From NCBI GenBank assembly GCA_000025185.1, contig CP001848.1, positions 3,630,001 to 3,662,000 on the forward strand: DNA of 32,000 nucleotides, given 5' to 3'. Shown here one piece after another: positions 274-22,335 of this stretch; positions within the stretch are counted from its first letter, which is position 1; every line of letters begins with the position of its first letter. The position numbers and the translations under genes were made by a program. The DNA comes from Pirellula staleyi DSM 6068 (GTDB taxonomy: Bacteria > Planctomycetota > Planctomycetia > Pirellulales > Pirellulaceae). Under the pieces are notes generated by a model that was not told where the DNA came from, ran no database searches, and saw nothing but the letters and a program-made list of their open reading frames with translations.

Positions 274-1140
274 CTAGCCGAAACTGCCGGTGAGATATTT
301 TTCCGTCAGCGGATTTTTGGGCGTTTGGAATATCTGCGACGTGTGACCACGTTCGATCATTTGCCCGAGGTACATGAAACTGGTGAAGTCGGCACAGCGG
401 GCCGCTTGTTCCATGTTGTGCGTGACGATCAAGATCGTCACTTTGTGTTTGAGCGCGAACATCATGTCTTCGATGCGTGATGTCGCAATCGGATCGAGTG
501 CCGAGGTCGGTTCGTCGAGCAAAAGTAGTTCAGGATCAGTTGCCAGCGCTCGAGCGACGCACAATCGCTGCTGCTGACCACCTGAAAGTTTGAACGCCGA
601 ATGATGCAGTCGGTCTTTCACTTCGTCCCACAAGGCGGCTGAACGGAGAGCAAACTCGACCCGTTCATTAAGCACCGAACGGTTATTGATAAATCGCAGC
701 CGCAAGCCATAGGCCACGTTCTCGTAGATCGACTTCGGAAACGGATTCGGTTTTTGAAAAACCATGCCGGTGCGGAGACGCATCTCCATCGGGTCGACAT
801 CGGGGCTGAGGATGTTGATGGGGGCCTGGTCGATGCCGCTTGGTTGCAGCATGATTTCCCCCTCGTAGTGATTTCCTGGGTAAAGATCGTGCATCCGGTT
901 AAAGCAACGCAGCAGCGTGCTTTTGCCGCATCCTGAAGGTCCGATTAAAGCAGTGATGGTGTGCTGCGGAATGGGCAAGCTCACGCTATGGAGCACCTGC
1001 TTGGTGCCGTAGAAGAAACTGACGTTCTTCACTTCGGCCTTGAGCTTGCTGGCGTCGATCAAACGCGGATCGCCACGCCCGGGAAAGTCGTTCGACTCAG
1101 CCGGCGGAGTGGATACTGGTTTGGTGGGAACGTTGCTCAT
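274..1140 (-). CDS. pstB: Phosphate ABC transporter ATP-binding protein PstB
   Basis: The track ORF is 274..1143, but its first codon is TTG, so I used the adjacent ATG at 1140. Walker [13 protein letters not shown] signature LSGGQQQRL and Walker [13 protein letters not shown] are present. It is the last gene in pstS-C-A-B order. Confidence 0.95.
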
Positions 1141-1183
1141 CAATCAAACTCGCAGCAAGAGCGCGAAACCGCAGGAAAAGATC

Positions 1184-2140
1184 TTACCACTTAATCTTGC
1201 GCCGCATCTGATAGCGAACATAGATCGCGATGGCATTCATGCTGAGCGTAAAAAAGATCAGCACCAGTCCTGTAGCAGCGGCTCGTGCATGGAAATCGGC
1301 GGTGGGACGCGACACCCAGTTGAACATCTGAATCGGCATCACGGTGAAGCCCGAAAACAGCCACTTGAAGCTGATGAAAGGTAATTCAGAGGTGATGGGA
1401 GAGGGGGGGATAAACGCGACGTACGAGAGTGCGCCGATGGTGATCAGCGGCGCGGTTTCACCGAGGGCTCGCGACATGGCGATGATCGTACCGGTTGCAA
1501 TACCACCGATCGAATAAGGAATGAGGTGGTAGCGAATCACTTGCCACTTCGTTGCGCCAGCAGCGTAGGCAGCTTCGCGAATCGCAGCCGGAATAGCACG
1601 GATCGCTTCACGTGTCGAAACAATCACGATGGGCAAGACGAGTGTCGCCAGCGTGAGCCCACCGACAAGAATGCAGCGCCCCAGATTGAACTGATAAACC
1701 AAAATTCCGAGTGCCATTAAGCCATAAATAATCGAAGGAACGCCCGCGAGATTCGAGATGTTGATTTCAATCAGGGTGGTGATGAAATTCTTCGGGGCAT
1801 ATTCTTCGAGATAAACGGCAGCTGCAATTCCGAGCGGAACAGCCGTGACGAGTGTCACCACAATAATGGCGAACGATCCCACGCTGGCCGAAAGAATGCC
1901 AGCACGCTCTGCTTTTCGCGAGGGAAAGTTGCGCAGAAAATCGAGGTTCAGGCTCGAGTAGCCGTCGTGAATCAAATCGCCCAGCAAGAAGATCAGCGTC
2001 AGAATCCCAACCAGCGTGCAAGCGATGCCGATCGCAACAAACCAATTGTCTTGCTGTTTGCGAAAGTTGATGATTCGCGATGCATCGAAGGTCAGCGGAG
2101 GCTGAACGTTCGTTTTTTTTTCGGAGTGGAGCGTATCCAT
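1184..2140 (-). CDS. pstA: Phosphate ABC transporter permease PstA
   Basis: 318-aa polytopic membrane ORF with an ATG start. It has a permease EAA-loop (REAAYAAGATKWQVI) and lies between the pstC-like gene and pstB. Confidence 0.9.
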   Translation of the reverse strand: MDTLHSEKKTNVQPPLTFDASRIINFRKQQDNWFVAIGIACTLVGILTLIFLLGDLIHDGYSSLNLDFLRNFPSRKAERAGILSASVGSFAIIVVTLVTAVPLGIAAAVYLEEYAPKNFITTLIEINISNLAGVPSIIYGLMALGILVYQFNLGRCILVGGLTLATLVLPIVIVSTREAIRAIPAAIREAAYAAGATKWQVIRYHLIPYSIGGIATGTIIAMSRALGETAPLITIGALSYVAFIPPSPITSELPFISFKWLFSGFTVMPIQMFNWVSRPTADFHARAAATGLVLIFFTLSMNAIAIYVRYQMRRKIKW

Positions 2141-2253
2141 AGCAAAGCGATGGGAGAGCGAGTTGAGGGGGCAGTGTGCTACTGCTGCAAAAGTGACGCT
2201 GCGAAATTGAGTAGGTGAGTCGAGTGAACCAAACAGTTTAGGTCGAGTGATAT

Positions 2254-3219
2254 TTAGTAAGCTTGGTGGTAACGACGACGCAGAACATAGCCTGCGATAT
2301 TGAACATCAGAGTCATGCTGAAGAGGACTAGGCCCGCCGCGAAAATCGATTGATAGCCAGCACTTCCGTGGGGAAGATCGCCGAGGCTCACTTGCACGAT
2401 GAACGCGGTAATGGTGGCCGCTTGTTCGGTGGGGTTGAGCGTAAGTTTCGGCTGCATGCCAGCAGCGACGGCAACGATCATCGTCTCGCCGATCGCCCGT
2501 GAGATGCCGAGGATGTACGCGGCGCCAATTCCCGAAAGAGCCGAGGGAATCACTACATTGATCGCCGTGGTGATGCGATTGCCACCCAGGGCATAGGAGC
2601 CTTCTCGCAGCAGCATCGGCACACTGCGCATGGCATCTTCACTGAGCGAACTCACGTAGGGGATGATCATGATTCCCATCACGATTCCCGCGCTCAGCAT
2701 GCTGAAGGTCGAGAGTTCAATCCCGACGAAGCTACACAAGTACTGCAGCACTGGAGCAACAAAGTTGAGCGCAAAATAGCCGTAGACCACAGTCGGCACG
2801 GCGCTCAGCAGTTCTAGTGTCGGCTTGATCGTTTCCCGCACCACGAACGGCGCGAACTCGCTGAGATAGACCGCCGCAATCGTGCCGATCGGCAGTGCCA
2901 CTGCGAGTGCCACCGCTGTCGTCACCAAGGTTCCCGACACAAGGGGCAGAATGCCGTACTTGGGGTTGGCGAATTGCGGAGTCCAGGTTGTGCCGGTGAG
3001 AAATTCAATGACCGATACGTCGCGAAAGAAGGCGATCGACTCGTAGATCAAAACGCCGACAATCCCCGCCGTGATCAAAACCGACGAACTGGCCGCCAGG
3101 AAAAGCACGATCGAGATCACCATCTCTTTCGCTTCGCGGATACGTCGTTTGGTTTTGTCCAGCTTCTGACGGGTCCGTAGGCGTTTGACCTGCGGTCGTG
3201 CGGATGCAGTTTCGGCCAA
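2254..3219 (-). CDS. pstC: Phosphate ABC transporter permease PstC
   Basis: 321-aa polytopic membrane ORF. The TTG start at 3219 is preceded by GAGGGGGA. It has an EAA-loop (LREGSYALGGNRITT) and lies immediately downstream of pstS. Confidence 0.9.
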   Translation of the reverse strand: MAETASARPQVKRLRTRQKLDKTKRRIREAKEMVISIVLFLAASSSVLITAGIVGVLIYESIAFFRDVSVIEFLTGTTWTPQFANPKYGILPLVSGTLVTTAVALAVALPIGTIAAVYLSEFAPFVVRETIKPTLELLSAVPTVVYGYFALNFVAPVLQYLCSFVGIELSTFSMLSAGIVMGIMIIPYVSSLSEDAMRSVPMLLREGSYALGGNRITTAINVVIPSALSGIGAAYILGISRAIGETMIVAVAAGMQPKLTLNPTEQAATITAFIVQVSLGDLPHGSAGYQSIFAAGLVLFSMTLMFNIAGYVLRRRYHQAY

Positions 3220-11984: not shown

Positions 11985-13301
11985 ATGTCCTCCACCGCTT
12001 CTGGCAACGCTCGCATGAACCGTGAAAAAAGTCAGCAGATCTTCGCAAAAGCTAAGCAGTTAATGCCGGGCGGAGTGAATAGTCCCGCGCGGGCATTTGG
12101 TGGTGTCGGTGGCGATCCGATTGTGTTCGATCGTGCGGAAGGGGCGTATCTTTACGACGTCGATGGGAACAAGTACATCGACTACATCGGTTCTTGGGGG
12201 CCAATGATTTTGGGGCACCGTCATCCACGTGTGGTGGACGCGGTGAAGCGAGCGGCTGATCGGGCATTCAGTTTTGGCGCCCCTTCGGTGGGTGAGAATA
12301 TCCTGGCGCAGCTGATTATCGACCTGGTCCCGTCGATTGAAATGGTTCGTCTCGTGAACTCTGGTACCGAAGCCACCATGTCGGCCATACGTGTCGCGCG
12401 GGGCTTCACTGGACGCGCAGGGATTGTGAAATTCGCCGGCAATTATCATGGCCACGTCGATAGTTTGCTCGTCGCAGCAGGATCAGCCGCGGCAACGCTG
12501 GGGGTGCCAAACTCACCAGGTGTGACTCCCGGAACGACGCAGGACACGCACATCGGACGCTACAACGATGTGCCCCATCTCGAGCAACTCTTTGCCCAGC
12601 ATGGCAGCGAAATTGCCGCTGTGATTTTCGAGCCGGTGGTTGGCAATATGGGATGTGTGATTCCATCGCCCGAGTTTTTGAGGTCGCTGCGAGAGATCAC
12701 GCGAAAGCACGGCGCTCTGCTGATTTGCGACGAAGTGATGACCGGCTTTCGGGTGTCGATCGGAGGAGCCCAGCAACTCTATGGGATCGAGCCCGATCTG
12801 ACGACGCTCGGAAAAATTGTTGGCGGCGGGATGCCAATCGGTGCTTACGGCGGTCGCGCCGATGTGATGAAGCATGTGCTTCCCGCTGGCAAGGTGTTTC
12901 AGGCGGGCACTTTGAGTGGAAACCCAATTGCCACAGCCGCTGGCATTGCGACGCTTGAGCAGCTTCGCGAAACGCCACCTTACGAGTATCTCGAGAAAAT
13001 CAGCGCGCAGCTCGAGGCGGGGCTCGCGCGTGAGGCAACGCAGGCCAACATTCCCCACGTCATCACGCGCGTTGGAAGCATGCTGACGTTGTTTTTCAGC
13101 AGCGTGCGTCCCCAAGATTGGGAGACTGCGAGCCAAAGCAATACGGCTCGTTATGCCAGCTACTTTTGGGGCTTGGCAGATCGTGGCATTTATATGCCAT
13201 GCAGCCAGTACGAAGCCCTGTTCATCTCAGCGGCGCATACGCCGGAAGATATCGAGGCCACGATTCGTTCCGCAGCCGAGGTCTTCAAGACACTGGCTTA
13301 A
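11985..13301 (+). CDS. hemL: Glutamate-1-semialdehyde 2,1-aminomutase HemL
   Basis: 438 aa. It has PGGVNSPARAF near the N-terminus and the class-III aminotransferase PLP-Lys context TTLGKIVGGGMP. An alternative ATG lies at 12015. Confidence 0.95.
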   Translation: MSSTASGNARMNREKSQQIFAKAKQLMPGGVNSPARAFGGVGGDPIVFDRAEGAYLYDVDGNKYIDYIGSWGPMILGHRHPRVVDAVKRAADRAFSFGAPSVGENILAQLIIDLVPSIEMVRLVNSGTEATMSAIRVARGFTGRAGIVKFAGNYHGHVDSLLVAAGSAAATLGVPNSPGVTPGTTQDTHIGRYNDVPHLEQLFAQHGSEIAAVIFEPVVGNMGCVIPSPEFLRSLREITRKHGALLICDEVMTGFRVSIGGAQQLYGIEPDLTTLGKIVGGGMPIGAYGGRADVMKHVLPAGKVFQAGTLSGNPIATAAGIATLEQLRETPPYEYLEKISAQLEAGLAREATQANIPHVITRVGSMLTLFFSSVRPQDWETASQSNTARYASYFWGLADRGIYMPCSQYEALFISAAHTPEDIEATIRSAAEVFKTLA

Positions 13302-13364
13302 CTGGAGCGGTGAGAGATAACTACAGCTTTTGGTACGAAGCTTGGACTTCGACCGTACGTCAAG

Positions 13365-13422
13365 AAAAAAATCGACGTGCGGGAAGGGCTGAAGCCTGCT
13401 CAACAGCTTCTCCCCGCACGTC
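13365..13422 (-). terminator. Rho-independent terminator candidate in the convergent gap between hemL and the small secreted protein gene
   Basis: A 10-bp GC-rich stem pairs gacgtgcggg (13374-13383) with cccgcacgtc (13413-13422). On the minus strand the stem is followed two nt later by a T7 run (A-run 13365-13371 on plus). On the plus strand the trailing sequence (ttgggtgg) is weak. Confidence 0.5.
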
Positions 13423-13578
13423 TTGGGTGGATCCTCAATGATCGCGTTTTGAATGGTAGTGAATCTTCTAGCGAGACATCTTGGCGGTCAAAGAGTCCAT
13501 GCATGAGAAGATTACGAGATCGGGTGAATGGGATGGTGCTTTATCCGATCACCCTTTGAGTACGACAGTTGAGAAGCT

Positions 13579-13902
13579 TTAGGGCTTGAGGCCGACTCTT
13601 GCCTTCACTTTGACGTCGGCTTTGACCTTCACGAGACCAAGCACTTTGACGTTGGCGTCGACGTCAACATTGGCGTCGAGCTTGAGCTTGGGAAGCTTGA
13701 TCGATGGGAGGCACAGGCAGCCACCTTCACCGCGGATAGCGTCGGCTTCGCTGGTGGTCAGAACGGTGCTGTTGTCGAGCCCCATCGCGGCAAATGCTTC
13801 TGGCATTTCCGAGGTAGCGGCTTGGTCGGCCGAGGCGATGCCAGCGGTGCCGAGGATGAGAGCGAAAGCGGCGGCGAGCCCCAGAATCTTGTTGCGGACC
13901 AT
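13579..13902 (-). CDS. Small secreted cationic protein with C-terminal hexapeptide repeats (hypothetical)
   Basis: 107 aa with an ATG start and AGGAG 11 nt upstream. It has a Sec signal MVRNKILGLAAAFALILGTAGIASA/DQ. The C-terminus carries five tandem hexads: DANVDV, DANVKV, LGLVKV, KADVKV, KARVGL. A 15-nt DNA repeat cactttgacgt(c/t)ggc occurs at 13606-13620 and 13642-13656. Confidence 0.6.
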   Translation of the reverse strand: MVRNKILGLAAAFALILGTAGIASADQAATSEMPEAFAAMGLDNSTVLTTSEADAIRGEGGCLCLPSIKLPKLKLDANVDVDANVKVLGLVKVKADVKVKARVGLKP

Positions 13903-13939
13903 AGTACGTAAACTCCTGCCACAGAACGTTTTACCTGCC

Positions 13940-13960
13940 CCCAGGAGGACATCTCCTGGG
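13940..13960 (-). promoter_or_regulatory. 5'-leader hairpin containing an SD-like AGGAG and its complement
   Basis: An 8-bp stem pairs cccaggag with ctcctggg, with a 5-nt loop. It lies 38-58 nt upstream of the ATG at 13902. The CUCCUG arm could alternatively pair with the real SD region (ggCAGGAG at 13914-13921). Confidence 0.3.
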
Positions 13961-14097
13961 TTACCCTGTGCGTTTCACTCTATCTGGGTGAAAGAGCTTC
14001 GCAACAGAATTTTTCGGCCCAGAAGGAGGCGGCAACCCGCCCGTTTGCGGTGGTCCGCGAGAGGTATTACGAGGAGTGTCAAAATGACCCAATTAGG

Positions 14098-14113
14098 CTG
14101 CGGAATTCCGCAG
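14098..14113. repeat. Perfect 16-bp palindrome ctgcggaattccgcag
   Basis: Read directly: ctgcggaa/ttccgcag. It sits in the 540-bp non-coding gap between guaA and the small secreted protein gene, about 200 bp upstream of the latter's start. It could be an operator or an RNA hairpin. Confidence 0.4.
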
Positions 14114-14443
14114 GAAAGCCCCTGAATTATTTGGGAAAACTTTTTCGACCTAAGGTGAAATGGAGTTCCAGAGGACTTGCTTTTCAGGGGCACTTCACGA
14201 CATTTCAGTCCAATCCGAACCAAAACGAAAGCTAGGGATCAGTTGTGGGCATTGTCTAGCAAACTGCTCGTCCAAGTGAAGCAAAAGAGAATGATGCCCC
14301 CGAGCATTTGAAGATGGTCCAGCGCGGATCTGCAAAACGCAGCAGATCGCACTACTATCGGCTCGAGTATCAGCTGGCGGGATGTCATGCGTGCTTTGCT
14401 GAGCACACATGAATGGCTGGTTTTCAGGCGAGTGATATCGCCA

Positions 14444-16012
14444 CTATTCCCACTCAATCGTCGCGGGTGGTTTGCTGCTGATGTCGTAGCAAACGCGATT
14501 CACACCCTTCACCTCGTTGATGATGCGTGTCGAAATTCGAGCAAGCACATCGTAGGGCAAGTGCGACCAGTCGGCGGTCATGAAATCGTCGGTATTCACG
14601 CAGCGAAGCGCTACGACATTTTCGTAGGTGCGAGCGTCGCCCATCACACCGACACTTTGCACCGGCAAGAGGACAGCAAAAGCTTGTGAGGTGCTACGAT
14701 AGAGACCAGCCGCTTTAATTTCGGCGATCATGATGGCGTCGGCTTCACGGAGTACATCAAGACGGGGCTTGGTGACCTCGCCTAAGCAGCGGACTGCCAA
14801 ACCGGGACCGGGAAACGGATGCCGCCAAACGAGATCTTCGGGCAATCCGAGTTCGAGACCCAGTTTGCGAACTTCGTCTTTGAAGAGGTCGCGCAGTGGC
14901 TCGACCAGTTCGAAGCCGAGTTCTGCAGGCAAGCCGCCGACGTTGTGATGCAATTTGATCGTGGCTGCAGGACCATCGGGCGCGGCGCCGCTTTCGATCA
15001 CGTCGGGATAGAGGGTTCCTTGAGCCAGGAACCGAGCATCCTCGATCTTTTTGGCTTCATCTTTGAAGCACTCAATAAACTCGTAGCCAATTTTTTTCCG
15101 TTTGGCTTGTGGTTCCGTTACACCGGCGAGTGCTTCAAGGAACCGTTTTTCCCCTTCCACGACGTGTAAATCGGTTTTGAAGTGGTTCGTGAACTCGGCA
15201 ATCACACCCGCTTGTTCATCTTTGCGGAGCAGGCCGTTATCGACCAGGATGCACGATAGTTTGGGGCCAATCGCGCGATAAAGCAGAGCCGCGGTGACAG
15301 CCGAATCGACACCACCCGAGAGGCCGCAGATGACCCGTGCATCACCGATTTGGGCACGCATCTTGAGGATCGCTTCTTTGGCAAAGTCGCCCAGTCGCCA
15401 CGTTCCGCTACAACCGCAGATAGCGGTGAGGAAGTTGTGGAGGATTGTTCCGCCGAGGGGAGTGTGGGTCACTTCGGGGTGAAACTGCATGGCGTAGACC
15501 GGCAGGGTCTTATGCTTCACTGCAGCGATGGGACAAGTGCCGGTTTTGGCGAGTGGAACGAAGTCGTCCGACACGCGCGACACCTGATCGCCGTGGCTCA
15601 TCCAAACATCAATCTTGTCGGGGACACCCGCAAACAGATCGGCATGCTCGGTGACGATGCATTGGCTGCGGCCATACTCGCGGGCAGGGGCACTATCGAC
15701 CTTGCCGCCCAGCGTGTCGCAGGCGAGCTGCATACCGTAGCAAATGCCTAGGACTGGAATCCCCATGTTGAAGAGGCGAGCATCGCAGCGCGGTGCTCCC
15801 GGTTCGTAGACACTCGAAGGTCCACCGGAAAGAATCAGCCCACGCGGGGCGTGATGAGCAATCTGCTCGACGGTGATATCGTGCCGCACGATCTCGCAGT
15901 AGACGTTGTTTTCCCGCACGCGGCGGGCAATCAGCTGGGCGTATTGCGAGCCAAAATCAAGTACCAGCACCCGCTGGTCGGCAATCGAGCGAAGGCCTGA
16001 ACCATCTGCCAT
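14444..16012 (-). CDS. guaA: GMP synthase (glutamine-hydrolysing) GuaA
   Basis: 522 aa. The class-I GATase domain has GICYGMQL and QFHPEV. The ATP-pyrophosphatase P-loop is GLSGGVDS. The C-terminus ...PPATIEWE is typical of GuaA. Confidence 0.97.
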
Positions 16013-16266
16013 GGAATGTACCCACCCAGTAGAAATCGCAAGTCTATCGCGACGAGCTCGGCCTACTGCCAGGCAGCAAGCTGAGAGGCGAATCGCGTAG
16101 TTTAGCCATTTTTGATCTCGGTCGCACCAGGGGTAGGGGGTGGTAAGCGACAGTTCCGTCGGCAGATTGTGGCGGCTGACAAGGTGCGTTACTCTCCGCT
16201 AAGGGCCTGCAGGAATGCTGCAGCGGCCTAATCGCACTTCCCCTCTCGCATGGATGGACTATAGGC

Positions 16267-17034
16267 GTGCTGATTCTGCTGACGAACGACGACGGTATCT
16301 ACGCCCCAGGCTTGGCCGCACTGGAGCGCGAACTTGTCAAAATTGGGGATGTTTCGGTCGTAGCGCCCGCCACTGAACAGAGTGGTGTGGGGCATTCGAT
16401 CACGTTCCTCAGCCCGCTAATTTGCAAGGAAGTTTACGACGGGGATCGGCGCCGAGGCTATGCCGTCGAAGGGAGCCCCGCTGATAGTGTGAAGCTCGGA
16501 CTTTTTGAGCTTTGCCCACGTCGGCCCGATTTGGTGGTGAGTGGCATTAACGGTGGGCTGAATGCAGGGATCAACGTTTTGTATAGCGGTACGGTGGCGG
16601 CGGCGATTGAAGGAGCCTTCTTTGGAATCACCAGCATCGCGTGCTCGCTCGAGTTCCACGAACACGCAAATTACGCTCGCGCGGCAGTGATTTGCCGCGA
16701 GTTGATCGAGCAGGTTCTAAGACAAAAAACCGAGAAGCCGCAGCTTTATAATCTCAATATCCCGACGGCGGCGATTGAGAATCCCAAAGGGGCGAAGATT
16801 GTGCCGATGGGGGTCTCGCGCTATGGCGAACATTACATCAAGCGAGTCGATCCACGCGGACGCAATTATTACTGGGCGACCAATGATCCGCCCCCTCAGC
16901 CCGAAGGTTATGACACCGATCTGACGGCGCTCAGTGAAGGTTTCGTTACGCTGTCGCCACTGCATTACAACTTGACCGATCCACCGGCGCTCGACGCTAT
17001 GAAAAACTGGAAATTAGAACTTCCTGGGCTGTAG
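16267..17034 (+). CDS. surE: 5'/3'-nucleotidase SurE
   Basis: 255 aa with a GTG start. The N-terminus MLILLTNDDGIYAPG and the SGINGGLNAG motif are present. Confidence 0.95.
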   Translation: MLILLTNDDGIYAPGLAALERELVKIGDVSVVAPATEQSGVGHSITFLSPLICKEVYDGDRRRGYAVEGSPADSVKLGLFELCPRRPDLVVSGINGGLNAGINVLYSGTVAAAIEGAFFGITSIACSLEFHEHANYARAAVICRELIEQVLRQKTEKPQLYNLNIPTAAIENPKGAKIVPMGVSRYGEHYIKRVDPRGRNYYWATNDPPPQPEGYDTDLTALSEGFVTLSPLHYNLTDPPALDAMKNWKLELPGL

Positions 17035-17088
17035 AATGCGGCCAGCGGTTGAGCAGAGCGGTGGAGACGTGGAATCCAAAAGGGGCTG

Positions 17089-17655
17089 ATGATGAAACGG
17101 TTGTGGAACTTGACGCTGTTGATCGGTGTCGTGGCGGTTGGCAGTTTGGCGGTTGGTTGTGGCAGTAATGCAACACCAACAGCAGCCGCCCCTGTAGCAC
17201 CAGCTGTGACGGCACCACCACCTCCGCCTGGTCCGCCCGCACCTCCTGCTCCGCCGACCATCGAGCCAGGAGCGCCTGTTGGTGCGGAAGTGCCATCCGG
17301 TACCGAGGCACCTGTAGATCCGGCTGCTGGAACGTCAGCCGATGAAACCGAGCGGGTGAAGGCGACCAAAGGGGTTGGCAAAGCGGGACGTAGTCTCGAC
17401 GAGCACGAGGGAATGGTTGTCACGCCAGTCAAAACGCTGTTTGCTGCTAAAGAGCGAATCGTGTTCGAAATCCAGATTCCTCAGGCACTTGCGCTGTTTT
17501 ACGGACTCGAAGGACGCTTCCCGGAATCGCACGACGAGTATATGGAGAAGGTGATTACCGCCAATCAGATTCCGCTACCAGTGCTTCCGGAAGGGCACAA
17601 ATACGTCTACGACGTCGAGACCCACGAACTGATGGTCGAGCGACCCAAGAAGTAG
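17089..17655 (+). CDS. Lipoprotein with Pro/Ala-rich linker (hypothetical)
   Basis: 188 aa with an ATG preceded by AAAGGGG. The lipobox is SLAVGC/GS. A run PPPPPGPPAPPAPP is followed by a globular C-terminal domain of about 90 aa (GMVVTPVKTLFAAKERIVFEIQIPQAL...). It starts 55 nt after surE. Confidence 0.75.
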   Translation: MMKRLWNLTLLIGVVAVGSLAVGCGSNATPTAAAPVAPAVTAPPPPPGPPAPPAPPTIEPGAPVGAEVPSGTEAPVDPAAGTSADETERVKATKGVGKAGRSLDEHEGMVVTPVKTLFAAKERIVFEIQIPQALALFYGLEGRFPESHDEYMEKVITANQIPLPVLPEGHKYVYDVETHELMVERPKK

Positions 17656-17658
17656 CGG

Positions 17659-17680
17659 TTTGGCAACGTCGCGTTGCCAA
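17659..17680 (+). terminator. Hairpin immediately after the lipoprotein stop codon (weak terminator candidate)
   Basis: ttggcaacg-tcg-cgttgccaa forms a 9-bp perfect stem starting 4 nt after the stop at 17655. It is followed by ttggcaac, a third copy of the arm, rather than by a clean T-run. Confidence 0.35.
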
Positions 17681-17944
17681 TTGGCAACAGCGGGGCTGAT
17701 TCGCAACACTTGGCCGAGAAGGGAGTAGCCACGCAAATCGGGCTAATTAGCATGAAATAGGTGCAGGTTCACACGGCGTCCGTTTTTGGCTCGCTATGTG
17801 CAATAGAGCACCTTCGCACGGAAGCGGTTCCCCGTCGGCGCTAAAGCCTGTGGCACGATAGCCATCGGCACGCCTTGGGAGTGTGCCGTCATGCTATCGA
17901 TTCCATCAAGTCCATCCAGTTGCCGCTTCGGGCGACGGCCTGCG

Positions 17945-18487
17945 ATGTCGCTACCTGCTCTGCTGCTGGTGGTGATTACTTCGGCGAATCTCGCTGCAGC
18001 TGATTGGATCACCGCACCTTCGACCTACACGCACGAGCCGCTGCAAGGTGAACGCGTTGCGCAGTACTCTCCGATCGGACCGTTCTACTACTATCAGCGT
18101 GCCGACTATCTGAAGAGTGGTTATCGCCACTATCGCAGCACGATCCAAATCGGAAACTCGGCTGATAACTATCACCAGGTGGAAGAGTGGGGACGCCCGG
18201 TTCGGCCTTACGAAGAATGGCGCTTCCCTTACCGGCCCTACAGCGTTCCCTATCAGCAATGGGGACCTCCGTTCGGCGGTCTCGGCGGCGGTGGTGGCTT
18301 TATCGGTCCCTATCCCTACGGCGGCGGCGGCTTTGGTGGTGGAGGTGGAGCGTACAACAACGGCATGCCCTATGGGGCTGTTCCACCGAACGCCAACGTG
18401 GTGCCGCAGCAATGGATGGACGGGCATTACCCGAGCTATAACCAGCGAGATCGCTCGGATTACTACCGACCCTATCGACCTGAATAA
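17945..18487 (+). CDS. Secreted Gly/Tyr/Pro-rich low-complexity protein (hypothetical)
   Basis: The track ORF starts at 17891. The ATG at 17945 gives the signal peptide MSLPALLLVVITSANLAAA/DW. The mature part has about 22 Tyr, eight P-Y dipeptides and Gly runs (GGLGGGGGFIGPYPYGGGGFGGGGGAY, about 18262-18355). Its stop lies 22 nt from the convergent C39 gene stop. Confidence 0.6.
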   Translation: MSLPALLLVVITSANLAAADWITAPSTYTHEPLQGERVAQYSPIGPFYYYQRADYLKSGYRHYRSTIQIGNSADNYHQVEEWGRPVRPYEEWRFPYRPYSVPYQQWGPPFGGLGGGGGFIGPYPYGGGGFGGGGGAYNNGMPYGAVPPNANVVPQQWMDGHYPSYNQRDRSDYYRPYRPE

Positions 18488-18509
18488 CGTGGCTTGGCTT
18501 CGTTCGCCT

Positions 18510-19226
18510 TCACTGGGGGCGAGGCTGAACTAGGTATCGCCGCGCTGCATCGAGTTCGTTCTGCACCGGCGGATCGGTATGGATTTGTAGCGGATGCGAT
18601 TGCGGCAGACCAAAGCCACGTTTGCCAACCAGCAGCGCTTCGCCGCTCCAATGCGTCATAAATTTTTCGGCCGACATGCGGACGTTGCCGCGCAGCGGAT
18701 CGGCAAGGAAAACGCGATCATCAACCGATCCTTTGAGCACCACAAAATGCTTGAATTCCTCGCGCACTAGTCGCACGATGACCGGCGCTTTGAGCCCCGG
18801 AATCTTGTCGGCAGGAAGTCGAATGACGGCTGCTAAATAACCCAATGCCTTGCAGCACAGGAACAGATCGTTCATCGAGAGACCGTTCTCCTGGCGATCC
18901 TTCACCTCATCGGCTTCCATCTTGCCGAGGATCTCTTTCAGGATCTTCGCTTCGCTAATGTCGTCTTGAAAGTAGTACTGAAAAATTGTCGCAAGCGTGG
19001 CAGCTCCGCAGGAATAGTCCTGCGCTTGCATCACGACATTTTCGCGCTGCAAGCTGGTCCAGCTACGAACCGACTTGCGAGCCAAAGGCTGTTTGGGACT
19101 TCGAAGAATCGGCACCTCGAGTGGTGTGTCGGCGAGTGTCGCTTGCGCACCTGCCAGTGGGAGCACGAGGACTACAGCGGCGAGAAATGCTCGGCGCTCG
19201 AGCCGGTCGTTGGATTGTCGGCGCAT
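18510..19226 (-). CDS. Exported stand-alone C39-family cysteine peptidase
   Basis: The track ORF runs to 19292. The ATG at 19226 gives MRRQSNDRLERRAFLAAVVLVLPLAGAQA, which contains an RRxFL twin-arginine-like signal. The C39 core is complete: Gln/Cys MQAQDYSCGAATL (Cys codon 19008-19010), His KHFVVLKG (18747-18749) and Asp VFLADP. No ABC transporter domain is fused. Confidence 0.8.
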   Translation of the reverse strand: MRRQSNDRLERRAFLAAVVLVLPLAGAQATLADTPLEVPILRSPKQPLARKSVRSWTSLQRENVVMQAQDYSCGAATLATIFQYYFQDDISEAKILKEILGKMEADEVKDRQENGLSMNDLFLCCKALGYLAAVIRLPADKIPGLKAPVIVRLVREEFKHFVVLKGSVDDRVFLADPLRGNVRMSAEKFMTHWSGEALLVGKRGFGLPQSHPLQIHTDPPVQNELDAARRYLVQPRPQ

Positions 19227-19230
19227 CGCT

Positions 19231-20802
19231 CTACTCCTCGCACTTCCAGCGTGTGTCGCGGGTCCGAATAAAGAAAACTCCGAGGAAGACATCGGGGGCG
19301 TCCTCTGTCAGGCCAAATGCGACAAACGGCTGCACGCTTCGATCGGCGCACTTGCGGCGTGTGATACTGAACTGCAGCAAAATGGGCTCTGCTGTCGAGT
19401 TCGGAATCCCCACATCATTGACGAGCGCCGCCGATGTAAACTCCCCAAAGAGTTCGGCCGAAACTGCCAGGTCGTCGTTGAGCGACATGCCCATCCCAAA
19501 GCTGTACGAGAACGTCTCGCCCGGCGTGATGATCAGACCATCAAACTCATTTTCGAATTCGTGTCGATATCCGATGCCGCCGAACAGTACGACGGGGTCG
19601 TACGACTTCACTGCGTTGAGGTTCACGCTAATGCTCCAAAACCCGCTTCCGAGCGATGCGGTATTCACGCTAGGTCCAAAAGGTGTGCTCCCTGTTGGAG
19701 CCGAGCACTGCATGCTGTAGATCAAGTCGGGCGAGCACTCAGTTTGCTGACAAATCTGCCACAGAAAACCGGCACTGATATCTCCGAGGCCACCTCGCGT
19801 GGTGAAATCGTTTGCGCCACTATTCGAGCGCTCGAAATTGGCGACACCGACCGGGAGAGTGCAAAAGATCTCCAGTTTGTCGCTCCAACCATAACGAGCC
19901 GTGAGTGGGACTTGCAGTTGACGTTCGCGAACGCGCTCGAGTTCGATCGTAGAATCGGGCAAGATCGTGATCACGTCGGCCTGCTGCCAGGAATAGGTGA
20001 AGCCATACTCGGTCTGCAGAACCCCTTGTCCGAGCAAGCTCGACGATTGACGCAAAAACACTTGGCTGATGTCGACCGGCGCTTCTCCCAGTGGCTGTTC
20101 CACAAGAGCTTCGCTGGCGACCGCAGCGGCTGTGCCCGAAGCAATTTCCGCTGCTGGTGCTGGCTGCGACACCAGCCAAGGATCGTGACGAATGCCCGGA
20201 AGTGGTGGAGGACCGAACCACCGATTGGTGGATGCTTCGGGACTCAGTTGAGGTGCCATGCTTGGTGGCACAGGTGAAATCGGGGCCCGCTGATTCACCA
20301 TCGCCTCCCAATCGGCATAGTTGGTCGGTGGTGCAGTGGTGGCGGGCGATGTGTTCGTTCGCTGGTCGTTTGGCAGCGGTTGCTCTACCACCGGAAGAGG
20401 CTGAAGGTTATCTGCCGGGTCCACCGGTGGCATACGAACCGGTTTCAGTGGATCGCTGATCGATGGAGCGTCAGATGGCGATCCGTTGCGAGCCGCTGGT
20501 CGCTCGATCCCGATTGGCCCAATTTCAGAGACCGGAGGGAGTCGTTCCAGTCGTTTTTCAGAACTCGGAATACCGAGAAACTGGCTTGAGTTTTGGGTGT
20601 CGGCTGAATCGCGAGAGGTGTCGTGTGCGGCAACTTCTATCGGCGCAAAGAGTTCAGTCGTTGGGCCTGCGCCGGAACCCAGCCCACTCGGTTCATCAAC
20701 GACGGGAGGCAAGCGTAGTATCTCGCCGTCGGCAGCAATCGACAAACTTGCCATCAGGCAAGCCGCCACCGCTGCCACGCATTGCGTGGTGAAAGAGGAC
20801 AT
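19231..20802 (-). CDS. Outer-membrane beta-barrel protein with long disordered N-terminal extension (transporter/MetA-pathway-like barrel, putative)
   Basis: 523 aa with an ATG start. A signal-like N-terminus (VAAVAACLMASLSIA/AD) is followed by about 230 aa of Pro/Ser/Ala-rich sequence carrying four RLPPV-type motifs. The C-terminal ~270 aa has an amphipathic strand pattern, a GLGD motif (TTRGGLGDISAGFLW) and a near-terminal LGVFF. Its stop lies 4 nt before the C39 gene start. Confidence 0.7.
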   Translation of the reverse strand: MSSFTTQCVAAVAACLMASLSIAADGEILRLPPVVDEPSGLGSGAGPTTELFAPIEVAAHDTSRDSADTQNSSQFLGIPSSEKRLERLPPVSEIGPIGIERPAARNGSPSDAPSISDPLKPVRMPPVDPADNLQPLPVVEQPLPNDQRTNTSPATTAPPTNYADWEAMVNQRAPISPVPPSMAPQLSPEASTNRWFGPPPLPGIRHDPWLVSQPAPAAEIASGTAAAVASEALVEQPLGEAPVDISQVFLRQSSSLLGQGVLQTEYGFTYSWQQADVITILPDSTIELERVRERQLQVPLTARYGWSDKLEIFCTLPVGVANFERSNSGANDFTTRGGLGDISAGFLWQICQQTECSPDLIYSMQCSAPTGSTPFGPSVNTASLGSGFWSISVNLNAVKSYDPVVLFGGIGYRHEFENEFDGLIITPGETFSYSFGMGMSLNDDLAVSAELFGEFTSAALVNDVGIPNSTAEPILLQFSITRRKCADRSVQPFVAFGLTEDAPDVFLGVFFIRTRDTRWKCEE

Positions 20803-21267
20803 CCGTGCGCCCCGCCGACGTCAGGTCTTATTGCGAACGATCCCCTGCCAAGGCAAGCACCGAATGCCAATTCCCATCGGCCAGCGACGTTATTCAAGAT
20901 GGAAACGTCGGCTGCAGTGCTTGTCGATCGATCGCTCCTGACGAGCGGCATCCCTTGTCGCGTTTCATCGACCGCTAGGAGCGCGTCAGATTCGCACACC
21001 GCTCAAAGTACGGGTAGTTCCGAATGGTGGTATCCAACGTATTGTTGCTATCAGTCCGCATTTGACGGATGTTCCGAGGAAGACAGCCTTATTAAAAAAG
21101 CGAAACACATCCCACAGCAGGGACTTACGTCGAATTACAATCCAGTGCAGTTCGCCACTCCCTGCTGGAAACGTCGCACGAAATGGTTGACAATACCCTC
21201 GCACATTCGTTCTAACCTTAGGCCAAATCGGTCGTTCCCCCCCAACGCACTTTGGCCGCTACTGCAG

Positions 21268-22335
21268 ATGATCATGCGTCGTCGTTCTGGCCCCGAAACC
21301 AACCTCGAGCAGAGCGACAACGTCGTTTTGTTTCCTTCGCTGGCGCATCGCACGCCCGATGGAAGCGCCTGGCAAGTGCAGGTCCATGGCGAGGTTTTTT
21401 CGATTGGGAAAGTCGGCCTCACCAAGCGATTCCTACTCTCGCTGCTAAAGCGGGCGATGGGGGCCTGCGAAGCCGAATTCCAGGGGGAAACGTTTCAGCG
21501 CCGCATCTCGCGATTCGTGGCCAACGACGGTGGAGGCAAACGTGTCGCCGTTGCCGTCGGTGACGAAACGCACTTGCTTCCCAAATCATCGCGCAGCAAC
21601 GGCCACTTCCTCGGAACCATTGTCCTTTCCGATGCGGAAATCGCGCAGCTGGCCGAGTCGGGCTATGTCCGCAACGGGCTCCTCGAACTGGGGATTCGCA
21701 GCGCAGCGGGCGAGCGTGCTCCGTTCCAAGGTCGCGTGCACCTTGTTGAGCAGCAAGGGCTGAGCGTCATTTCCGATATCGACGACACGCTGAAACACTC
21801 GGAAGTTCTCAGCCGACAAACGCTCCTTCGCAACACGTTTTTGAACACGTTTCAATCGGTCGAGGGGATGTCCGCCGTCCTGAAACGATGGGAGCAGGAA
21901 GGGGCGCAGTTTCACTATGTCTCTTCGAGCCCTTGGCAGCTCTTTTCGCACCTTCAGGAACTTTTCCTCCAGGAGGGTTTTCCGCAGGGGTCGTTTCACT
22001 TGCGAGCGTTCCGTCTGCGCGACCATTTGATTCGCCGCATTCTGATGCTGCGTCGCTCCGGCAAAGGAGCCGTCATTCGCAACATCATCAGTGTCTTTCC
22101 GCAGCGAAAATTTGTCCTGATCGGTGACTCGGGAGAACACGACCCCGAGATCTACGCCCAAATGGCCCGCAAGTTTCCCGATCAAATCACCAAGATTTTG
22201 ATTCGCGACCTCGGTGGAAAAAACAGCACACCGGCTCGTTTTCAGTACCTCGAGCGTTATCTGAAACCGGGCGTTTTTCAGCTCTACAAGCACGCGAACG
22301 AACTCCCCGATCTCTCCTCGCTGCAGCAGTGGTAG
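21268..22335 (+). CDS. App1-like phosphatidate phosphatase / DUF2183 family protein
   Basis: The track ORF starts at 20782, but the first 162 aa do not look like protein. The ATG at 21268 gives MIMRRRSGPE... It has the HAD-like DxDxT motif (VISDIDDTLKHSEV), YVSSSPWQLF and LIGDSGEHDPEIY. Confidence 0.8.
   Translation: MIMRRRSGPETNLEQSDNVVLFPSLAHRTPDGSAWQVQVHGEVFSIGKVGLTKRFLLSLLKRAMGACEAEFQGETFQRRISRFVANDGGGKRVAVAVGDETHLLPKSSRSNGHFLGTIVLSDAEIAQLAESGYVRNGLLELGIRSAAGERAPFQGRVHLVEQQGLSVISDIDDTLKHSEVLSRQTLLRNTFLNTFQSVEGMSAVLKRWEQEGAQFHYVSSSPWQLFSHLQELFLQEGFPQGSFHLRAFRLRDHLIRRILMLRRSGKGAVIRNIISVFPQRKFVLIGDSGEHDPEIYAQMARKFPDQITKILIRDLGGKNSTPARFQYLERYLKPGVFQLYKHANELPDLSSLQQW

Follow-up and report, generated by a model that had tools for sequence, protein, structure and literature searches.

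The stretch of Pirellula staleyi DSM 6068 DNA analyzed here (32,000 nucleotides of contig CP001848.1, called the window below) contains two neighbouring minus-strand genes, Psta_2819 and Psta_2818, that encode an outer-membrane beta-barrel protein and a stand-alone C39 cysteine peptidase. In sequence and in structural models the two products resemble FapF and FapD of the Pseudomonas functional-amyloid (Fap) system, and a third gene of the window, Psta_2813, is predicted to encode a cargo of the pair. The features of the three genes are as follows:

19231..20802, minus strand: Psta_2819, FapF-like outer-membrane channel protein (523 aa + stop)
20731..20802, minus strand: putative signal peptide of Psta_2819 (about aa 1-24, ending ...SLSIAA and followed by DG)
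20095..20730, minus strand: disordered Pro/Ser/Ala-rich periplasmic extension of Psta_2819 (aa 25-236), without a coiled coil
20023..20094, minus strand: conserved motif PLGEAPVDISQVFLRQSSSLLGQG ahead of the barrel (aa 237-260), aligned with the FapF plug region
19270..20022, minus strand: 12-stranded beta-barrel domain (aa 261-511) with GGLGD and APTG motifs
19234..19269, minus strand: C-terminal tail IRTRDTRWKCEE, 12 residues past the usual terminal aromatic, after LGVFF
18510..19226, minus strand: Psta_2818, stand-alone exported FapD-like C39 cysteine peptidase (238 aa + stop)
19131..19226, minus strand: putative export signal of Psta_2818 (about aa 1-32) with the twin-arginine-like ERRAFL, read from the sequence
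18621..19043, minus strand: C39 catalytic domain (aa 62-202)
19026-19028, 19008-19010, 18747-18749 and 18699-18701, minus strand: catalytic codons of Gln67, Cys73, His160 and Asp176, respectively (238-aa numbering)
13579..13902, minus strand: Psta_2813, predicted cargo precursor (107 aa + stop) with signal peptide, leader and 48-aa core
13726..13797, minus strand: predicted leader of Psta_2813, AFAAMGLDNSTVLTTSEADAIRGE (aa 36-59), also written ...MGLDNSTVLTTSEADAIRG-E or ...MGL...LTTSEADAIRG-E
13582..13725, minus strand: predicted core of Psta_2813, GGCLCLPSIKLPKLKLDANVDVDANVKVLGLVKVKADVKVKARVGLKP, 48 residues in an alternating hydrophobic/charged beta-strand pattern

The limits of Psta_2819 follow the open reading frame (ORF) list and the deposited locus tag. 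The longest ORF of the peptidase gene spans 18510-19292 (260 aa), and the ATG at 19226 gives the 238-aa product, which is 100% identical to the deposited ADB17484.1. On the minus strand the junction of the genes reads TGG AAG TGC GAG GAG TAG agcg ATG CGC CGA, with the barrel stop codon at 19231-19233. A preliminary description of this DNA had reported the two minus-strand genes 4 nt apart, a series of motifs (GGLGD, LGVFF followed by the tail, ERRAFL, QAQDYSCG, KHFVV and LADP) and a 523-aa product made of a signal peptide, a Pro-rich low-complexity region, a strand-rich GGLGD domain and a 12-residue tail. Its coordinates, stop codon and ATG all match the sequence, every motif is present in the translations and each part of the 523-aa product was confirmed.

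The C-terminal domain of Psta_2819 is, on both sequence and model comparisons, a true FapF homologue. An AlphaFold2 (AF2) model, calculated from a shallow alignment of nine sequences (a word-based search with the barrel gave only eight matches), shows twelve long strands, with predicted local distance difference test (pLDDT) values mostly of 70-90 over residues ~250-518; this strand count is consistent with the FapF-like barrel proposed in the preliminary description. NCBIfam models matched residues 240-510, FapF being the best (2.8e-21) and FilC the next (1.2e-18), with a score for FapF NF058560 of 75.8 bits, below the equivalog cut-off of 700 bits. The best match in a PDB sequence search was FapF 5o65 (E 9.1e-19), at residues 246-508 of Psta_2819, and it took in nearly the whole crystallised beta-domain. 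In Pfam the protein matched Phenol_MetA_deg (3e-6, 27.9 bits). When the model was compared with the PDB by Foldseek, the top 18 matches were all FapF chains (E 2e-19 to 5e-15), with template modelling (TM) scores of 0.75-0.84, root-mean-square deviations (rmsd) of 2.3-4.3 Å and 22-25% identity. The next structural match was the COG4313 channel 4rl8 (E 1.7e-11, rmsd 5.2 Å, 13-14% identity), and the generic porin or FadL-type fold that had been considered beforehand was not borne out, as porins, FadL and autotransporters rank far below FapF.

AF2 puts a helix at residues 4-24 of Psta_2819, where the signal peptide was read from the sequence. In the extension that follows (about aa 25-236) the proline fraction is 0.16, the pLDDT is below 50 and only two helices of 4-8 residues each were modelled; neither the model nor the composition of this N-terminus showed a trimeric coiled coil of the FapF type. 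Across relatives the extension varies from 35 to 752 aa and its sequence is hypervariable. The homologues conserve a segment, PLGEAPxDISQxFLRQSSSLL, that precedes the barrel and lies opposite the FapF plug region in the alignment. In the PDB sequence match PLGEAPVDISQVFLRQSSSLLGQG of Psta_2819, which is kept in homologues, is aligned to SNLYNEASGFFGNG of FapF, and the segment FLRQSSSLLGQG aligns with YNEASGFFGNG of FapF; AF2 modelled only a short helix here, at 245-249, with a pLDDT of ~50-70. PLGEAP itself occupies aa 237-242 (20077-20094) and appears as LGE(A/E)P in P0001-P0006, which are the closest barrel homologues, and in locus L034 with the form TLGEEP. Its position recalls the GG/GA motifs found there in FapF, which were proposed as a possible FapD site. 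At the other end of the protein, most barrel relatives terminate on an aromatic residue right behind the last strand (...GITWTY/F). The tail IRTRDTRWKCEE is conserved in P0002 and similar in P0003, and Cys-containing tails are confined to the closest clade; those of the Pirellula-like barrels (window, L004, L007, P0003) read RWKCEE, RWARCDP, ARCDAHAS and PRCGNCW. Formation of a disulfide is one possibility for the purpose of these tails.

As for Psta_2818, its sequence and model place it as an active-type C39 peptidase whose closest named family is FapD. Pfam Peptidase_C39 matched it at 1.4e-22 (80.4 bits, cut-off 22), and among NCBIfam models FapD was the best named family (5.3e-27), followed by FilB (1.6e-21); the score for FapD NF058616 was 94.5 bits, below the equivalog cut-off of 330 bits. 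The catalytic set Gln67, Cys73, His160 and Asp176, contained in the motifs QAQDYSCG, KHFVV and LADP, is invariant in 31 homologues and aligns with the catalytic residues of the solved double-glycine peptidases PCAT1 and LahT150, so the earlier reading of an intact Gln/Cys/His/Asp set stands. The AF2 model has a pLDDT of 87 overall and of 97-98 in the core, and superimposes on the peptidase domains of ComA, PCAT1 and LahT with TM scores of 0.74-0.85 (ComA, 0.84-0.85, rmsd 2.1-2.2 Å). Psta_2818 carries no ATP-binding cassette (ABC) transporter domain and has a hydrophobic N-terminus. In agreement with the preliminary description, no ABC peptide exporter of the peptidase-containing type (PCAT) was found in the window, the sole ABC genes being those of a binding-protein-dependent importer at 274-3219. 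Export of Psta_2818 is well supported by its N-terminal sequence. The RRAFL motif that had been taken as a twin-arginine-like signal is present, yet the pattern RR-x-[FW]-L is limited to Psta_2818 (ERRAFL) and its closest relative (SRRQWL), the other homologues having Sec-type N-termini. A twin-arginine translocation (Tat) route is therefore possible for this protein and not a trait of the family.

We looked for the pair in other genomes with a peptidase alignment, because barrel alignments proved unsuitable: a genome scan with a four-sequence barrel alignment matched 34 stretches and none of them held a barrel relative. Among species-representative genomes the peptidase alignment found at least 560 relatives, of which the best 80 loci were kept. 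Together with five metagenomic loci and the window they make up 86 sources, which are the closest peptidase relatives and not a random sample. Hidden Markov model (HMM) searches detected a FapF-like barrel in 85 of these 86 peptidase-holding sources; the barrel gene is directly upstream on the same strand in 79 and downstream in six. Such recurrence in 79 of 86 independent sources places the adjacency of the two genes beyond chance, and it bears out the co-occurrence expected in the preliminary description. Planctomycetota (Pirellulales, Thermoguttaceae, Bythopirellula, Blastopirellula, Bremerella) make up most of the hosts, and the rest include Thiotrichales, Methylococcales, several Pseudomonas, Desulfobacula, one Nitrospirae and one Chthoniobacteraceae genome. 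Dueholm et al. found Fap systems only in Beta-, Gamma- and Deltaproteobacteria and mentioned that their FapD and FapF models match "larger protein families", which they left unpursued (PMC3792158). The Pirellula module is part of that unexplored remainder of the FapD/FapF families. A literature search of incomplete coverage gave no paper on FapF/FapD-like pairs outside Proteobacteria, an absence of evidence only.

A third component accompanies many of these pairs. It was first spotted as small ORFs beside the pair in unrelated contigs, and these share a layout: each starts with a Sec-type signal peptide, continues through a short spacer into a conserved stretch that closes with [IV]-[RKQ]-G-x, and has a wholly different core behind it. 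The conserved stretch, termed here the leader, is of the double-glycine type (L/M-x3-E-x3-I/V-x-G) and comes after the Sec-type signal peptide in every cargo. An HMM of the leader, started from eight seeds and iterated, retrieved 64 small ORFs in 46 sources (consensus TLAAMGLSGMTVLSDSEGMAVRGMG; aligned family consensus, MGLxGMxVMSDxExxxVRG). An independent test that combined a regular expression with a crude signal-peptide rule selected 57 ORFs at 3.5 kb or less from the pair versus three beyond this distance, the ORF space of the two zones being comparable (odds ratio 23.6, p 6e-17), and the three distant ORFs are true members of the family, from the window, its close relative L001 and L004. 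Five further cargoes, four from Pseudomonas and one from Desulfobacula, were recovered by homology to the cargo of L049 and sit directly upstream of the barrel. Counting the matches to the HMM and the regular expression, those of Pseudomonas and Desulfobacula, and the other gammaproteobacterial and the Chthoniobacteraceae cargoes recognized by eye, we find one cargo or more in 55 of the 86 sources; a loose-motif scan of the remaining cargo-less loci added only L013 plus obvious false positives. The compact unit cargo-barrel-C39, separate from the fap operon, was seen at L049 (8085-8588), in L025, L028, L041 and L084 (Pseudomonas) and in L051 (Desulfobacula).

When the leaders are numbered with the invariant Gly at -2, position -12 is hydrophobic, -8 is Glu, Gln or Asp, -7 is small or hydrophobic and -4 is Ile, Val or Leu. 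Position -1 varies across the family (G, A, N, R, T, E, M, K, H, Q), and a true GG or GA closes the leader in several gammaproteobacterial copies. The cores comprise 36 to 143 residues, are hypervariable and are often Gly/Ser/Ala/Asn-rich and strand-patterned; several of the gammaproteobacterial ones resemble curlin or Fap Q/N repeats. No Pfam or NCBIfam family covers the leader, and the matches of the cargoes were limited to one curlin core and one UmoA core. The former belongs to a planctomycete cargo (L024, 11091-11807, minus strand) whose core of 143 residues is composed of repeats of the curlin type (CsgA model, 1.4e-6, below cut-off), here fused to a Fap-type leader instead of belonging to a CsgG-served curli system. 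The latter is the Pseudomonas-type core, which matched UmoA at 2.9e-11; UmoA is a little-understood regulator of flagellar biogenesis in Proteus. A database search with the leader profile gave 72 relatives, all of them unnamed or "hypothetical". When the search was started from cargo matches, L089 contained the pair and L086-L088 had neither barrel nor C39 peptidase within 7 kb, so that adjacency of cargo and pair is common and not obligatory. In L086 (6154-8136) and L087 (6257-8062) the three tandem cargo genes have two unannotated genes (~395 and ~530 aa) upstream of them and adjoin an amine-oxidase-like gene; their products may rely on service in trans or on other machinery.

Leader-bearing genes of P. 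staleyi were sought within the window. Psta_2813, annotated only as hypothetical, has a signal peptide at residues 1-25; it matched the leader HMM at E 8e-14 as a seed member and also passed the independent test of regular expression and signal peptide. In the family alignment of its leader, Arg57 and Gly58 are invariant and G41 and L42 nearly so, and the register is L48 (-12), E52 (-8), A53 (-7), I56 (-4) and G58 (-2), with Glu59 at -1. From this register, cleavage is predicted at or just after Gly58-Glu59. The core is cationic and amphipathic, its alternating pattern being found in DANVDVDANVKVLGLVKVKADVKVKARV. The best evidence that Psta_2813 belongs to the module is a homologue in L003 that aligns from end to end, through leader and core, at 39% identity (E 8e-11), shows a (K/D)ANVKV repeat pattern similar to that of the Psta_2813 core and is placed 300 bp from the barrel gene; the peptidase of L003 is 49% identical to Psta_2818. 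Of the two substrates suggested in the preliminary description, the protein at 13579-13902 is thus retained, with the family leader and the L003 homologue in its favour, whereas the one at 17891-18487 is not, as it has no leader and is found elsewhere only in L001.

A leader of the same kind was then recognized in the Fap system itself. We fetched 80 true fap operons from metagenomes with the FapF sequence. In L092, where the gene order is FapA-B-C-D-E-F, the N-terminus of FapE reads MMNTYRWLTVLCLAASMPAYA-ASAFKPIE-MNDAELAQLRGR-FVMPG, that is, a signal peptide and then a leader in the cargo register. Among FapE homologues, 72 of 75 have [LIVM][KN]DxE[ML][AGS]xLRG[RK][YF] after the signal peptide, and no such leader was present in FapA, FapB or FapC of L092, the one fap operon inspected in full. 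An ungapped HMM of 70 non-Fap leaders ranked FapE first in the fap loci and matched 73 of 73 full-length FapE proteins, the best FapE having an E of 0.034 versus 4.2 for the best other ORF. Since the match is always FapE and always directly behind the signal peptide, we find this sequence pattern persuasive. Psta_2813 and FapE share the layout of signal peptide plus leader, with that marginal leader match (best E 0.034), and their mature parts show no similarity. FapD is periplasmic, its catalytic Cys is required for secretion and mature FapE lacks its first ~70 residues (PMC5557850), and a leader in FapE agrees with the last two of these observations. The target of FapD was left open by the same authors, who saw no canonical C39 site (PMC5557850), and it was still open in 2025 (PMC12822426). 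Our literature search, incomplete in coverage, produced no paper on Sec-dependent double-glycine-type leaders, which again is only absence of evidence. As far as that search reached, we found no paper on the leader-defined cargo family or on its extension to FapE, which would be the previously unreported elements here.

From the homology of both proteins, the pairing of their genes and the co-located cargo family with its common leader, we infer a Fap-type two-step export, in which the cutting of the leader and its precise position, the transit of the barrel and what becomes of the product would be as follows. The Psta_2813 precursor would cross the inner membrane by Sec and lose its signal peptide. 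In the periplasm the free C39 peptidase Psta_2818 would recognize and cut the amphipathic leader of ~25 residues, in analogy to the recognition of double-glycine leaders by the C39 domains of ABC exporters. The freed, unfolded, beta-prone core of 48 residues would then be threaded through the 12-stranded barrel of Psta_2819 across the outer membrane, where the long disordered periplasmic arm of the protein may aid in substrate capture. Once outside the cell the core would probably self-assemble or remain attached to the surface. We give this reading a probability of about 0.62. The central proposal of the preliminary description, a module of a FapF/FapD-like outer-membrane barrel and a free periplasmic C39 peptidase, is upheld by the sequence, structure-model and synteny evidence; its notion of a minimal two-gene variant of a planctomycete gives way to a widespread module of at least three parts in several phyla. 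A broader formulation can be put forward more tentatively, at somewhat less than even odds: FapF/FapD-type pairs would constitute an unnamed, phylum-spanning pathway of outer-membrane export in which a Sec signal and an internal double-glycine-like leader are read by a periplasmic C39 peptidase, FapE would be one of its substrates and the planctomycete cargoes would be unexplored self-assembling surface peptides.

Several observations weigh against the proposed export route. Psta_2813 is 4.6 kb from the pair with the housekeeping genes surE and guaA in between, and proximity in the window is weak evidence by itself because the only close relative, L001, is syntenic throughout. No cargo was seen within reach in 31 of the 86 sources, and the cargo clusters of L086-L088 are far from any pair. 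Position -1 of the leader is not fixed as Gly, Ala or Ser, and therefore the cleavage specificity would differ from that of known C39 enzymes. Finally, the leader match of FapE is marginal per sequence, and the barrel alignment contained nine sequences, with a low-confidence plug region in the model.

The main rival explanation keeps the same machinery and differs in the nature of the product: the cargoes would be released bacteriocin- or microcin-like antimicrobial or signalling peptides and no subunits of a fibril or matrix. Bacteriocins and microcins have double-glycine-type leaders as their hallmark, the cargoes are small, hypervariable, often Cys-containing and often arranged as tandem paralogues, and the Psta_2813 core is cationic and amphipathic. 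However, no immunity-like gene was recognized next to the cargoes, many cores show the Gly/Ser/Ala/Asn-rich, beta-strand-patterned composition described above, one has curlin repeats and several gammaproteobacterial ones are curlin- or Fap Q/N-like, and the one channel relative that has been characterised is an exporter of amyloid subunits (PMC5557850). We consider this alternative unlikely, though worth keeping in mind.

Less probable still is that the peptidase acts mainly on the barrel protein, at its extension or at the plug junction, to gate the channel, the leader proteins being uncleaved or unrelated passengers. Rouse et al. proposed, as one possibility, that FapD cuts the linker of FapF (PMC5557850), and PLGEAP (TLGEEP in L034), conserved in the closest homologues, is found just before the plug-equivalent segment of the barrels. 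PLGEAP was tried as a C39 cleavage site and rejected, as it is out of the leader register with Pro at -4; moreover, length and sequence are both hypervariable among the N-terminal extensions, and the conserved feature that does look like a C39 substrate is the leader of the small proteins.

Two other genes of the window lie close to the pair:

17891-18487, plus strand: secreted protein of 198 aa, abundant in runs of Tyr, Pro and Gly (GGLGGGGGFIGPYPYGGGGFGGGGGAYNNG), whose gene converges on that of the peptidase at a distance of 22 nt
17089-17655, plus strand: 188-aa predicted lipoprotein with a LAVGC lipobox and a poly-Pro/Ala linker, without a family match

The first of them could be taken as the substrate, as it adjoins the pair and has a signal peptide and Gly/Tyr-rich low complexity, and the verrucomicrobial cargo of L019 is also Gly/Tyr/Asn-rich. 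Yet it has neither the leader motif nor a family match, and apart from the fully syntenic L001 none of the other 84 sources has a homologue of it, which makes this reading very improbable. The lipoprotein is likewise conserved only in L001; neither gene travels with the pair and both were rejected as parts of the module. That the barrel is a COG4313/MetA-type channel for uptake of hydrophobic compounds and the peptidase an incidental neighbour, as the Pfam assignment and the second rank of 4rl8 could suggest, is hardly credible, given the better E-value, identity and rmsd of FapF (2e-19 versus 1.7e-11; 22-25% versus 13-14%; 2.3-3.5 Å versus 5.2 Å) and the presence of the pair in 85 of 86 sources, and this synteny nearly excludes it.

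The genes around the pair in P. staleyi are surE, guaA, hemL and an APP1-type phosphatase. A promoter and terminator scan of 13300-21400 gave counts no higher than in shuffled sequence. The APP1-type phosphatidate phosphatase ORF (20782-22335, plus strand) is divergent from the barrel gene and encodes 517 aa from a TTG start; a relative has 353 aa plus a separate 88-aa ORF in the matching stretch, and the P. staleyi ORF is probably over-extended at its 5' end. A Cys-rich outer-membrane-like protein of ~400-700 aa (L034, 6415-7827, minus strand) flanks the pair, as homologues, in 39 planctomycete loci (e.g., L057, L032, L053, L061), and in most planctomycete modules its gene is placed between those of the cargoes and that of the barrel. 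It has a signal peptide, the Cys-rich segment CCGSECDPSCSYTDPGCCSGGDCC and, at the C-terminus, an outer-membrane-like domain whose last residues are TGFTW, and it gave no Pfam or NCBIfam match. This protein is absent from the window, and for this reason the P. staleyi locus can be viewed as a reduced version. Tad/Flp pilus genes (T2SSE, two T2SSF, TadE) are found a few kb from the module in two unrelated planctomycete contigs, L002 (15297-17563) and L003 (1-3433), and in L003 the peptidase is followed by a choice-of-anchor-A/pAdhesive_15 protein.

Fap serves as a model of functional amyloid in bacteria and is a drug target in biofilms. The leader common to dozens of unrelated cargoes and to FapE makes the target of FapD testable, with the specific prediction of a cleavage at or beside the invariant Gly of E-x3-[ILV]-[RK]-G-x; if FapE is indeed such a substrate, this would settle what FapD cleaves. 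The channel/peptidase pair reaches well past Proteobacteria and is common in Planctomycetota, whose envelope and surface structures are poorly understood. The leader is also a handle for finding new secreted peptides, possibly fibril-forming or antimicrobial, and the two-gene outer-membrane exporter, combined with a Sec-plus-leader tag, could be used as a compact tool for secretion.

Compared with known systems, the COG4313/Phenol_MetA_deg channels are not the closest relatives of Psta_2819, since 4rl8 ranks below every FapF chain. The curli system (CsgA/B and CsgG) resembles the proposed route in its Sec-dependent, ATP-free export of unfolded beta-prone subunits across the outer membrane, but CsgG is an unrelated nonameric lipoprotein channel and curli have no leader-processing peptidase. 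The PCATs (PCAT1, ComA, LahT and the microcin V exporter) share with Psta_2818 the C39 fold and catalytic residues, and their leaders share with the cargo leaders the hydrophobic/acidic spacing at -12, -8, -7 and -4 and the Gly at -2. In contrast to them, Psta_2818 is a separate exported protein unfused to an ABC exporter, the cargo leader stands behind a Sec signal peptide and so would be read in the periplasm, its position -1 is variable instead of the Gly, Ala or Ser of double-glycine leaders, and the Pirellula module, which contains no ATPase, would export only across the outer membrane.

The likeness to Fap is closer. Both have a homologous 12-stranded barrel with a putative plug-equivalent segment and the APTG motif, their free exported C39 peptidases are homologous and complete in the catalytic set, their substrates would arrive through Sec, and FapE appears to be built like the Pirellula-type cargoes, with a signal peptide, an L/M-x-D-x-E-M/L-A-x-L-R-G leader and a mature part. 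They differ in the disordered Pro-rich arm that Psta_2819 has in place of FapF's N-terminal coiled coil, which in its trimeric form with Gln layers was reported for all FapF homologues (PMC6173795), in the extra C-terminal tail of Psta_2819 and in the gene order, which is barrel-peptidase in Pirellula and peptidase-FapE-barrel in fap. No FapA, FapB or FapC, as the preliminary description had stated, and no Fap repeats were detected with Pfam and NCBIfam among the six ORFs scanned beside the pair, and the host belongs to Planctomycetota instead of the reported Beta-, Gamma- and Deltaproteobacteria (PMC3792158). Because it lacks the coiled coil and FapA/B/C, and both proteins score far under the NCBIfam equivalog cut-offs, the module is Fap-like and not a Fap system. 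One more relative is the "putative pilus system" Fil of Acinetobacter, for which the literature search, again of incomplete coverage, turned up no paper treating FilB/FilC together with C39 or Acinetobacter. FilB, a C39 protein, and FilC are the second-best named families of the two window proteins, with scores far below cut-off, and this similarity in sequence suggests that Fil is another uncharacterised branch of the barrel-plus-C39 pairing.

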